DNA from: Spirochaetia bacterium
Lineage (GTDB): Bacteria > Spirochaetota > Spirochaetia > SP-2023
DNA: 64,000 bases
Direction of reading: 5' to 3'
Assembly: GCA_965225855.1 (NCBI GenBank)
Contig: CBDDCK010000005.1
Span: forward strand, 1,536,001-1,600,000
Part shown: positions 16,392 through 62,895 of the stretch, piece by piece
Layout of the letters: each line of letters begins with the position of its first letter
Numbering within the stretch: the first letter of the stretch is position 1
Program-made: the position numbers and the translations under genes
The notes under the pieces: model-generated
What the model was told of the DNA's origin: nothing
What the model saw: the letters and a program-made list of their open reading frames with translations, nothing else
Databases searched by the model: none

Positions 16392-16436
16392 TGATGCAGG
16401 ACGTGATAACTTTGTGCCATCGGACGTGATAACTCG
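16392..16436 (+). repeat. Terminal repeat, end type A
   Basis: TGATGCAGGACGTGATAACTTTGTGCCATCGGACGTGATAACTCG; also at 54138, 58979 and (minus strand) 62895. Confidence 0.9.
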
Positions 16437-16510
16437 ATTTTTTCTACTTACCAAGGCTATAATTGGCAAAAGCAGCCTTAATAAATTTTTCTAGCCTTGC
16501 TATGATATAG

Positions 16511-16550
16511 CTTTCCGCCTTGGATCAAGGCCTTGATCCAAGGCGGAAAG
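16511..16550. repeat. Perfect 40-bp palindrome
   Basis: CTTTCCGCCTTGGATCAAGG|CCTTGATCCAAGGCGGAAAG. Confidence 0.95.
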
Positions 16551-16672
16551 ATGTATTGCACCAATGCGGAACAATACTTTATACCAAGGCTATAATTGGC
16601 CTATGCAGCCTTGATAAAAAACTTACCAAGGCTGCATAGGCCAATGCAAGCGTTGCAACAACCAAACCCTAC

Positions 16673-59046: not shown

Positions 59047-59214
59047 GTATTTTACCCAATAGCTACTTGAAGTACCACATATTTGGCTGTTGCTATCTTG
59101 CTTTTTATCCTTTTCATCTTGCCAAAGTTTGCCTTGTGGCAATAACGCTAGCAAAGCATCACGATATTGTGCGTTACTATGATTACCTAAAAGCCCCTCA
59201 CCATCTAAGCCCAT
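59047..59214 (-). pseudogene. Fragment resembling Mu gp48/YmfQ (DUF2313) phage tail-baseplate protein N-terminus
   Basis: GGAG RBS and ATG 59214, then QYRDALLALLPQGKLW; reading frame runs into end A. Confidence 0.45.
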
Positions 59215-59822
59215 GTTATTGCTCCTAATGTTAAGATTTTTCTCTGGATACAGCTTTTACTGGCTGTGGCTTGTAATGTCAATTGCTATAATATAGCTTT
59301 CCGCCTTGGATCAATAGATTGATCGGCCTTGCTATAATATAGCTTTCCGCATTCGATCAAGGCCTTGATCTATTGCGCTTGTTTATCGCTAGCGGATAAG
59401 CTACCGAACATTTTTGCCTACTTTTTATCTCACTAAGCACATCTAAAATTGCTTGCGTTGCATCTATTGAAGCGCTTTCGGTATATACGGTAAGAGCCCC
59501 AGCTAAATACGGGAAGCCAATATAGCCAAAGCTATTGATCATTGCATGGAAACAACCAAAGGCTGGAACAGCCAAAGGCCAAACCAAGCCCTAAACACCC
59601 AGACTTATACAAATTCTTACCCAAGGTATCTGAAGGTATCTGAAGGTATCTCAAGTAATCTATTGCTTACAAACCACCGTATTTGCCTACAACACTAAGA
59701 CACAAAAAACTTACAAAAAGCTTATATAGGCCTTGACGCAACACCCCCCCTAGCAAAATAGGGATTTACAGACTAGCCCGTATGGGTTGGCCAATCTTTA
59801 TCCCTTGTTGGAGGTATTGCTT

Positions 59823-62684
59823 ATGTATAAGCTCAAACTACTTTTATTGCCAGTAGCATTGCTACTGGCCTTTATGGCCTTGGCCTGCGCCCCACCCGAT
59901 GACGATGATCGATCTTCTGGGCCATCTTCTGGGCCGTCTATCAATAATGCCATCTACGACTTTGCTACGGCTCTGTTAACCGTACAAGGTTCTAACTTAA
60001 GTCCTACAACTGCGACCCAAGCGCAAATCCAAACTATCAGGGTAGGAAGCCAAACAAATGGTGTAGACTTCAGTTCCTATACTGCAGATGAGGATGCCAC
60101 TGGTGTAAATAGTAACGGTCTTGAACAAGGTAAGTACCGTATGAAAAGCGATGGCACAGCGCTTTGGCTTAGACTTACCGATCAACATAAAGCTGCTCTT
60201 CAGACCAAGGTGGGTATGAATACCAATGGTCTAAAAAAAGGGTTGCTTACTAGCTCTGGTGCTTGGGCGGGTTTAAATACACCTAAAGACTTGGACGTTA
60301 GGAATGTACCCGAAAATAAGCAGTCTAAAGTATCCGATGACAATCAGCCATCTAAGCAAGCTGAAGAAGACGAACAAGACGAACAAGACGAACAAGCTGA
60401 ACAAGCCAAACAAGCTGAACAAGCCAAACAAGCTGAACAAGTCGAAGATAAGCAGTCTAAGACCGAAACCGAAGATCAGTCGCTTAAGCAAGCCGAAGCT
60501 GCAATTACCGGTGCAAGCTACCATGTTGGCACGGCGCTGTTAACTTTACAAGGTACTCACTTAGCTAGTGCGACCCAAGCGCAAATCCAAACTATCACGG
60601 TAGATGGCTTAGCCTTAAGTTCCTATATTGCAGATGAGGATGCCACTGGGCCAGATAGTCGCGGTCTTGTAAAAGGTAAGTACCGCCTGCATAGCGCTGG
60701 CACAGCGCTTTGGCTTTACCTTACCGATCAACATAAAGCTACTCTGAATGGCAAGACAGGTATGGATAGCAATGGTCTAAAAGATGGGTTGCTTAGCGTT
60801 GGCACTGGTACTTGGGCGGGTTTAAATACAGCCAAAGCCTTGGCCGTTAGTGGAAACCCCGCAATTACCCGTGCAAGCTACAATGTTGGCACGGCGCTGT
60901 TAACTGTACAAGGTACTGACTTAGGTAGTGCGACCCAAGCCCAAATCCAAACCATCGTGGTAGATGGCTTAGCCTTAAGTTCCTATACTGCAGATGGCAC
61001 AGCCACTGGGCCAGATAGTCGCGGTCTTGTAAAAGGTAAGTACCGTATTAAAAGCGATGGCACAGCGCTTTGGCTTTACCTTACCGATGCCGATAAAGCT
61101 ACTCTGAATGGCAAGACAGGTATGGATAGCAATGGTCTAAAAGATGGGTTGCTTACTAGCACTGGTACTTGGGCGGGTTTAGATACAGCCAAAGCCTTGG
61201 CCGTTAGTGGAAACCCCGCAATTACCGGTGCAAGCTACCATGTTGGCACGGCGCTGCTAACTTTACAAGGTACTGACTTAGGTAGTGCGACCCAAGCCCA
61301 AATCCAAACTATCACGGTAGATGGCGTAGCCTTAAATTCCTATATTGCAGATGGCACAGCCACTGGTGAAGATAGTAGCGGTCTTACAAAAGGTAAGTAC
61401 CGCCTGCATAGCGCTGGCACAGCGCTTTGGCTTTACCTTACCGATACCGATAAAGATGCTCTGAATGGCAAGACAGGTATGGATAGCAATGGTCTAAAAG
61501 ATGGGTTGCTTACTAGCACTGGTACTTGGGCGGGTTTAGATACAGCCAAAGCCTTGGCCGTTAGTGGAAACCCACCCGCAATTACCAGTGCAAGCTACAA
61601 TGTTGGCACGGCGCTGTTAACCGTACAAGGTTCTAACTTAAGTCCTACAACTGCGACCCAAGCCCAAATCCAAACCATCACGGTAGATGGGATAGCTTTA
61701 GATTCCTATACTGCAGATGGCACAGCCACTGGGCCAGATAGTCGTGGTCTTGCAAAAGGTAAGTACCGTATGAAAAGCGATGGCACAGCGCTTTGGCTTT
61801 ACCTTACCGATACCGATAAAGCTACTCTGAATGGCAAGACAGGTATGGATAGCAATGGTCTAAAAGATGGGTTGCTTAGCGTTGGTACTGGTGCTTGGGC
61901 GGGTTTAGATACAGCCAAAGCCTTGGCCGTTAGTGGTAACCCACCCACAATTACCCGTGCAACCTACAATGCTGCTACAGGCGTGTTAGTGATTACAGGT
62001 GTCAATTTACCAAAAACAGTTAAAGGCTGGGACTTCACCAAATTGAGGTTTGTCGCAGGTAATGGTCGTACTAAGAGTGCCCCATTATTACGGCACAACC
62101 CAACATTCAGTTTTAGTAGAGCCAAAGGTTCTCGTGCAAGTGCAACAAGCTTAACGATTACTTTAAAGGGTAGAGAAATAGATAAAGCCGATAAGATATT
62201 GGTTAAGAATGGTGATAGTGATGCTGATGGTTTTTACAACCTGGAAGCAGCAGCAGGATTTGCAGGTGGTAGCGCTGAAGACACAAGCAATAACCCTATT
62301 ACCGTTAGTGGGCGTGTAAGCCATATCACCAACGCATTCTACAATTCACGTACAGGCGTGTTAACGATTAATGGTACTGATTTACCGACAACAGTTGCAG
62401 AGTGGGACTTCAGCAAATTGACGCTTGTATCCGGTGATGGTAAGAAGAGATTCACATTACCCCAGCACGCAACCACAGGTGAAAACACAGCCACAGGTTC
62501 TGCAGCAAGTATAACAATCGTAACTATTACTTTAAGCGGTAGTGTAAAAGTGGAAGCCGATGCTATACTTGATACGGCTGGTCTTCAAGATGCTGATGGT
62601 TATTACAACCTTGAAGGAGCAGCAGGATTTGTAATGGGTAGTCCAGCAGACACAAGCAATAACATTATTTATGTTAGTAATTAG
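59823..62684 (+). CDS. Modular repeat lipoprotein, paralog 4 (A-linker-A4-B2)
   Basis: Same leader and lipobox; five A repeats, E/Q linker, two B repeats. Confidence 0.9.
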   Translation: MYKLKLLLLPVALLLAFMALACAPPDDDDRSSGPSSGPSINNAIYDFATALLTVQGSNLSPTTATQAQIQTIRVGSQTNGVDFSSYTADEDATGVNSNGLEQGKYRMKSDGTALWLRLTDQHKAALQTKVGMNTNGLKKGLLTSSGAWAGLNTPKDLDVRNVPENKQSKVSDDNQPSKQAEEDEQDEQDEQAEQAKQAEQAKQAEQVEDKQSKTETEDQSLKQAEAAITGASYHVGTALLTLQGTHLASATQAQIQTITVDGLALSSYIADEDATGPDSRGLVKGKYRLHSAGTALWLYLTDQHKATLNGKTGMDSNGLKDGLLSVGTGTWAGLNTAKALAVSGNPAITRASYNVGTALLTVQGTDLGSATQAQIQTIVVDGLALSSYTADGTATGPDSRGLVKGKYRIKSDGTALWLYLTDADKATLNGKTGMDSNGLKDGLLTSTGTWAGLDTAKALAVSGNPAITGASYHVGTALLTLQGTDLGSATQAQIQTITVDGVALNSYIADGTATGEDSSGLTKGKYRLHSAGTALWLYLTDTDKDALNGKTGMDSNGLKDGLLTSTGTWAGLDTAKALAVSGNPPAITSASYNVGTALLTVQGSNLSPTTATQAQIQTITVDGIALDSYTADGTATGPDSRGLAKGKYRMKSDGTALWLYLTDTDKATLNGKTGMDSNGLKDGLLSVGTGAWAGLDTAKALAVSGNPPTITRATYNAATGVLVITGVNLPKTVKGWDFTKLRFVAGNGRTKSAPLLRHNPTFSFSRAKGSRASATSLTITLKGREIDKADKILVKNGDSDADGFYNLEAAAGFAGGSAEDTSNNPITVSGRVSHITNAFYNSRTGVLTINGTDLPTTVAEWDFSKLTLVSGDGKKRFTLPQHATTGENTATGSAASITIVTITLSGSVKVEADAILDTAGLQDADGYYNLEGAAGFVMGSPADTSNNIIYVSN

Positions 62685-62895
62685 TTTGACTGCGCTTGCC
62701 CAATAGCTCTTATAGCAGCTAAGTGAAAGCTAGCGGGCGGTCAACCAAGTAAATGCGGTAAGCAATGCTTGGTTGGCTTATTGCAGCCTTGGTAAGTTTT
62801 TTATCAAGGCTGCTTTTATCAATTATAGCCATTCTGGAAAGTAGAAGAGTCGAGTTATCACGTCCGATGGCACAAAGTTATCACGTCCTGCATCA

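Follow-up and report, generated by a model that had tools for sequence, protein, structure and literature searches.

How did genes of one surface-lipoprotein family come to lie between the ends of a Mu-like phage? This question is raised by a 64,000-nucleotide stretch of the genome of a Spirochaetia bacterium (G000:C5:1536001-1600000; referred to here as the window), where three inward-facing pairs of short ends each enclose one gene for a predicted lipoprotein. We propose that these are natural mini-Mu cassettes, in which a lipoprotein gene lies between the ends of a B3-type prophage and has been inserted with 6-bp target duplications, likely by the prophage transposase acting in trans. We give this reading a probability of about 0.85. 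It is carried by the identity of the ends, their fixed polarity, target duplications, a consensus at the target, a host gene that one cassette has split, and a pair of cassettes with a split duplication.

A preliminary description of the window had listed six ends of two types, A and B, and their positions and strands were the same when the sequence was re-read. The double-site pattern that defines them matched six times in the window compared with 0.00 expected from 100 shuffles of it. As had been described, TGA opens all six ends and the two 12-bp sites of each are at positions 9 and 32, except that the first site at 58979 departs from the given form and reads GACGCG. The identity between types A and B (33 of 45 bases) was reproduced. 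Similarity had also been said to stop at the terminal TG; this is the case on the outer side, but inside the ends likeness continues for 60–270 bp. Each pair does enclose a single intact paralog, of 770, 617, and 965 aa respectively, with no transposase between the ends. The third pair (58979-62895) consists of two right ends (A-A), and debris of the prophage makes up its upstream part.

The ends belong to a resident prophage of 36 kb at about C5:1257677-1293766. Type A is exactly its right terminus and type B matches its left terminus, so that the transposase-enclosing copy sought in the preliminary description is present as a Mu/B3-type prophage. Its transposase (586 aa; phrog_310, Pfam rve) has an open frame, and its nearest relatives among phage transposases (28–38%) come from phages of Pseudomonas, Burkholderia, and enterobacteria, B3 and BcepMu among them. 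Residues D144, D238, and E274 do not vary across a four-way alignment that includes B3 and, from their position in the rve domain, are probably catalytic. Other genes encode a MuB-type ATPase, repressor, terminase, portal, head, sheath, tape-measure, and baseplate proteins. Several features of mini-Mu elements occur together here: TG...CA termini with tandem repeats that are putative transposase-binding sites, ends that bound a prophage with transposase, MuB, and virion genes, and a 6-bp duplication. Among the families proposed earlier, Mu was retained (B3 branch, with its 6-bp duplication) and Tn7, IS21, and IS481/IS1202 were not; no partner of the latter types, without virion genes, was found, as the only rve transposase lies in the prophage. 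Profile counts for the genome were one rve match, no Y1 transposases, and no reverse transcriptases (other insertion sequence families were not scanned), and there are two tyrosine recombinases of a kind common to all three relatives.

The prophage is decayed. Its portal frame ends early, and 46-bp repeats like those of the lipoprotein flanks break up the portal region and have taken the place of part of baseplate J (C5:1264372-1264473 and 1292521-1292877; L001, L002). These pasted repeats have short matching borders, and the copy of baseplate J on contig C4 is whole. Partial prophage copies run to contig ends on C3 and C4. A genome of the same genus, G002, contains a related prophage (transposase 55% identical) with the same end design. 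G002 showed no expansion of the motif (18 matches vs 35 in the control). In its prophage the head genes of G000 were not matched, and a tail-fibre module (L002:7469-9057, G002:C1:237980-241217) is present twice, compared with once in G000. For G000 itself, LuxS neighbours lend coarse support to a spirochaete.

To count the ends genome-wide, as the preliminary description had recommended, we used two patterns for the first 20–22 bases and removed one double count. This gave 63 ends, 32 of type A and 31 of type B, and 58 of the 63 adjoin lipoprotein-family genes rather than housekeeping genes. BLASTP identified 116 related open reading frames (ORFs), of which 107 with the conserved start motif and at least 300 aa were taken as the family and 9 were dropped. 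These 107 ORFs cover 223,890 of 2,712,625 bases (8% of the genome), a figure that is slightly high because ORFs were counted from the first start codon. Ends flank 40 of the 107 copies (17 with B and A, 13 with B only, 9 with A only, and 1 with two A ends) and 67 copies have none. The polarity is nearly invariant. B lies upstream of the gene in all 30 lipoprotein-adjacent B ends and A lies downstream in 27 of 28; the A end at 58979..59078 is the sole case among the 107 copies of an A end upstream of its gene. The phage sequence kept at the ends is also stereotyped, being 106 or 271 bp in most cases. The five ends that do not face a lipoprotein gene are three A ends that are prophage right ends, one orphan A end, and one B end that continues into 682 bp from the left end of the prophage.

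Because the tandem 12-mer is nearly always beside lipoprotein genes, it could in principle be a host transcription-factor site or terminator element of these genes. We consider this hardly credible since the 12-mer also bounds two prophages in two species and, at the lipoprotein genes, it occurs on both sides, faces inward, starts with TG, and is flanked by target duplications.

Exact 6-bp target duplications flank 5 of the 18 facing pairs that span less than 5 kb (p 8e-7, allowing for a chance rate as high as 1%). Excerpts of PMC8705779 state that the B3 transposase makes duplications of this length. Outside the 63 ends lie 58 distinct flanks, which show a palindromic bias centred on 6 bp. 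The consensus NYTARN is found in 11 of the 58 compared with 21 of 1044 in the local background (p 2e-8), and this bias shows that the same cut also produced the ends that have no partner duplication. The 58 distinct junctions imply at least about 29 insertion events. One cassette (C5:1781349-1784824) lies within a gene that aligned to a single protein of the relative G003 on either side (residues 122–158 and 175–284). Insertions are mostly between genes, with only 1 of 63 ends in an ORF that has a G003 orthologue.

Two sister cassettes, at C5:1385280 and C5:1508059, are inverted relative to each other and 92% collinear along the 2592 bp that start at the B end. By private 32-mers, the pair ranks 10th among 5671. 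They carry the two halves of one target, TAAAGC/GCTTTA. In the Shapiro model, intramolecular replicative transposition leads to an inversion with a split duplication, and the geometry of the sister cassettes is as left by this process. In all, replicative footprints come to one strong and one weak case. Mu transposition is described as replicative, yielding inversions, deletions, and cointegrates, in excerpts of PMC10052514.

These features also bear on whether the ends are scars of whole-prophage insertions into which lipoprotein genes were pasted later, so that the gene was never cargo. Prophage debris beside at least three copies, including window 59079-59467 and C5:1036215-1041152, is consistent with this, but the fixed polarity, the stereotyped length of the phage remnant, and the gene and ends that the split-target sister cassettes have in common make it improbable.

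A further pair of ends has the same flank outside both of its members. The A end at 54138 (flank at window 54132-54137) and a B end at C5:1616622 (flank 1616623-1616628), 26.5 kb apart, both have CCTAAT outside, and this is one of six inward pairs of 5–40 kb. A cointegrate would leave such a match, but gene order in the relatives does not support this reading: the two flanking genes lie apart in G003, and G001 and G002 each have no clear match to one of them. The pair is a lead only.

Several results weigh against the mini-Mu reading. No target duplication is present at any of the three pairs in the window (outer flanks ATAGAG/ATTGGG, CCTAAT/ATTAAG, and ACAGCC/TAGCGC), and 13 of the 18 pairs in the genome have none. 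At the first site, the left terminus of the prophage is unlike B, and it lacks a duplication; a sibling phage that was lost may therefore have been the donor. Non-adjacent ends with a split target number only 3 compared with ~1.4 expected by chance, below what simple flank-swapping predicts. Exchange of upstream and downstream flanks relative to G003 was also at the expected level (8 observed, 8.6 expected). In contigs of related-strain runs from another study (X4 and X5), neither a joint across the cassette nor an empty site was seen among the 15 of 49 joints listed. Finally, the 67 end-less copies count against a phage origin of the whole family, and inner left-end sequence is kept in only 5 of 76 copies without an upstream end.

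On another account, which bears on the last of these points, most of the growth of the family came about by ectopic gene conversion or microhomology-mediated pasting, and Mu ends captured and moved only a subset at a later time. Here the mini-Mu cassettes are real but make up at most ~40% of copies, so that the difference lies in share and not in kind. We regard this as possible though not favoured. Consistent with it, the end-less copies have ragged outer boundaries, where short direct repeats are not in excess (13 of 58 vs 9.6 ± 2.8). Flank repeats have also been pasted into the prophage portal and baseplate genes without any end, so that a second, non-Mu dispersal process is at work in this genome. 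By contrast, 68 of 77 copies without a B end have distal upstream modules in common with ended cassettes. The ends are the outermost parts of a cassette and would go first, and intermediate states do occur in the form of solo ends (22 copies) and degenerate ends. The claim of the preliminary description that a trans-mobilised element amplified and dispersed the family is supported for the ended cassettes and goes beyond the evidence for the whole family. Mu may explain only part of the expansion, as so many copies have no ends.

The preliminary description had also raised the possibility that the loci are fully syntenic in relatives. They are not syntenic in G003, in which 0 of 96 lipoprotein junctions were conserved, including 0 of 5 that are flanked by duplications, but G003 is too scrambled to be informative about empty sites. 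Its background synteny is low (20 of 134 for gaps of 0.5–2.5 kb and 101 of 242 for same-strand gaps of at least 100 bp) and median protein identity is 64%, so that it cannot show them. The lack of synteny fits with rearrangement hot spots. In the contigs of X4 and X5, cassette depth is ~50–100x that of the flanks and is high over the B end, and the related strains of that study have the lipoprotein family at high copy number. The public runs listed no RNA data set. A lipoprotein query had no match in G001-G005 or in a collection of genome contigs. Homologues of near full length were 82 proteins, apparently from this assembly, and 5 proteins in ENA, different variants in other assemblies, that are 76–86% identical to their best G000 match; more distant lipoproteins (40–52%) resemble divergent, end-less members of the G000 family. 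The end pattern had no match in collections of genome, viral, or metagenome contigs, from which this genome and very near ones were possibly excluded.

The mini-Mu reading suggests the following course of events. An ancestral lipoprotein gene would have come between two ends of a B3-type prophage. The transposase would bind the tandem 12-bp sites and, presumably in a replicative manner, copy the cassette, leaving inversions and cointegrates; as a helper it would direct copies to NYTARN sites, mostly intergenic. Afterwards, homologous recombination and gene conversion among ~100 copies would swap repeats and flanks, and deletions would then remove ends. Such recombination and deletion would explain the mosaic genes, the missing duplications (13/18), and part of the end-less copies. 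The ends and the insertion scars are observed, and the action in trans, its timing, and the Mu share of the family are what we infer.

The cargo itself shows signs of recombination. When upstream, N-terminal, C-terminal, and downstream segments were compared, segment similarities were nearly uncorrelated (Spearman –0.12 to 0.18, except for 0.44 between two neighbouring C-terminal segments) and nearest neighbours agreed across segments in 0–24 of 90 copies, showing that the copies are recombined mosaics. All 107 copies keep a signal-peptide-like N-terminus with a cysteine. In most, N-type repeats are followed by an acidic spacer and then C-type repeats, ~120 aa each. The ratio of nonsynonymous to synonymous polymorphism (pN/pS) was 1.4–1.9 for the distal, C-type units and 0.8–1.1 for the N-type units, based on 6000 sampled pairs per type, uncorrected and with pairs that are not independent. 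A promoter-like pattern fits 91 of the 107 copies, and 14 have no match, some of these with a variant. A run of 6–8 C residues precedes most copies, and its length may include homopolymer errors. Antigenic variation of the vls/vmp type relies on promoterless partial cassettes and a single expression site. Such silent cassettes were considered and seem not to apply, given that 107 copies keep the cysteine and 91 of 107 the promoter-like pattern. The C-type repeat is 33–35% identical to internal repeats of giant DUF4347/RTX proteins, which suggests that the cargo may be an extended surface adhesin. To see in it an adhesin or antigen under current variation, in line with the preliminary description, goes further than the evidence. 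Pfam, a PDB sequence search, and the ESM atlas gave no firm family for it (Ig-like ESM leads were below 0.9). We think it likely that cassette dispersal is a route to a large and varied surface coat. A more speculative and rather unlikely extension is that the phage has been domesticated: a virion-defective helper prophage would still copy adhesin cassettes while recombination diversifies the distal repeats, giving a strain-specific coat of ~100 proteins and a reshuffled genome.

As a comparison, the closest arrangement that we found is that of the TALE genes of Xanthomonas, which excerpts of PMC4337579 place in Tn3-type mobile insertion cassettes (MICs). In both cases repeat-built, host-facing genes lie in transposase-less cassettes and the cognate transposase is elsewhere; ~45% of TALE genes are in cassettes, and solo ends, end-less copies, and duplications in only some cassettes occur as they do here. 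However, from the same excerpts, the spirochaete system differs in its phage ends and enzyme in place of Tn3, in a duplication of 6 bp and not 5, in its 107 dispersed copies in one 2.7-Mb genome, and in carrying a predicted surface lipoprotein and not an injected effector. A passenger gene between two ends without a transposase is a feature of MICs, but membership of the MIC231 or Tn3 types was rejected because the ends are prophage termini and not those of IS231/IS4 or Tn3; the cassettes are MIC-like in working only. Laboratory mini-Mu and mini-D3112 elements, as outlined in parts of PMC10052514 and PMC8705779, are likewise internally deleted phage DNA with both termini kept, whereas the present cassettes are natural and belong to the B3 branch, and they combine a host gene with only ~60–270 bp of DNA from the phage. 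The transposable prophages of the B3, BcepMu, and Leptospira type resemble the resident prophage in their transposase (29–30% identical) and, from partial sources, in a 6-bp duplication. The early gene order DUF3102-A-B-DUF3164-gemA-mor is common to B3 and the resident prophage, and the B3 left end also begins with TGA. The resident prophage differs in being decayed (portal, baseplate J in the C5 copy, and left terminus), and the same partial sources describe no cargo-bearing derivatives of the others. Phage-linked multiplication of spirochaete surface lipoprotein genes is also seen with Erp and Rev on Borrelia cp32 (excerpts of PMC10016077), but there erp genes are on whole episomal prophages, unlike the short chromosomal cassettes here that have prophage ends only. 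The giant DUF4347/RTX-repeat proteins of Proteobacteria, such as the tandem-95 repeat protein of Litoribrevibacter albus, share the likeness in the C-type repeat, but the cargo is a lipoprotein of 400–1300 aa without DUF4347 or RTX parts that is putatively adhesive.

We found no paper on natural phage-end cassettes that amplify a host gene family in a search that left subscription literature mostly outside. Engineered mini-Mu tools and IS231 or Tn3 cargo cassettes are known from the parts of the literature cited above; here phage ends have been naturally recruited to disperse a host family over 8% of a small genome. These are mini-Mu-type cassettes at an unusual scale. If the reading is correct, a phage transposase is a route to surface-protein repertoires, and the cassettes define a minimal B3-type substrate (two sites per end, within at most ~100–270 bp) with dozens of natural junctions for a little-studied branch of transposases.

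Table 1. Cassette components and related features, in window coordinates.
Feature	Position	Strand	Remarks
Type A end (prophage right end), downstream of cargo gene	16392..16436	+	Matches prophage right terminus G000:C5:1293766
Cargo lipoprotein gene, 770-aa ORF	16673..18985	-	Signal peptide with Cys; N-type and C-type ~120-aa repeats
Promoter-like site TTGACG-CAACA-C7-TAGC-AAAAT	19008..19034	-	Putative function; kept before most paralogs; C-run 6–8 among copies
Tandem 46/47-bp repeat array (family D16)	19268..19596	.	Within cassette, upstream of gene
Type B end and prophage left-end sequence	19841..20065	-	Upstream of gene; first 45 bp of end at 20021-20065
Fourth paralog, 575 aa	28790..30517	+	Same internal flank modules, no phage end; absent from the preliminary description
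Type A (right) end	54138..54182	+	One base past stop codon of MFS gene; outer flank CCTAAT fits NYTARN
Cargo lipoprotein gene, 617 aa	54283..56136	-	Acidic E/Q/K spacer
Type B (left) end	56651..56757	-	With ~100 bp of prophage left-end sequence
Type A end, prophage-exact subtype	58979..59078	+	102 bp, 99% to prophage right end
Prophage debris	59079..59467	.	Piece of gp48-like gene region (85%), 46-bp repeat, 89-bp piece of MuB gene (97%)
Cargo lipoprotein gene, 965 aa	59787..62684	+	
Type A (right) end, downstream of gene	62851..62895	-	

The genome contains three CRISPR arrays (C5:662.6-676 kb, 898.8-902.5 kb, and 1074-1095 kb, with 201, 55, and 321 spacers), the largest of which adjoins a Cas12a-like ORF. 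About 14 spacers match the chromosome exactly, and two of these match many lipoprotein genes, the window copies included. Compared with the prophage, the spacers gave no convincing match and one partial match of 22 of 28.

Other repeat-rich genes are also present. A second multicopy family, of short heptad-repeat proteins, is often adjacent to lipoprotein loci (C5:41081-54514, C4:135032, and C5:1104061-1113673). At C5:1181199-1187508 there are two ORFs with repeats that we take to be DUF285/BspA-like, each followed by a 46-bp array that also occurs in lipoprotein flanks. An ORF at window 3416-4666 has 99-bp repeats (family D20) that are ankyrin-like, judging by their period. Tandem clusters of genes whose repeats by eye appear TPR-like lie at C5:110-132 kb, 769-786 kb, and 927-945 kb, and several of these genes are paired with a partner ORF of ~630 aa and have intergenic repeats in common.

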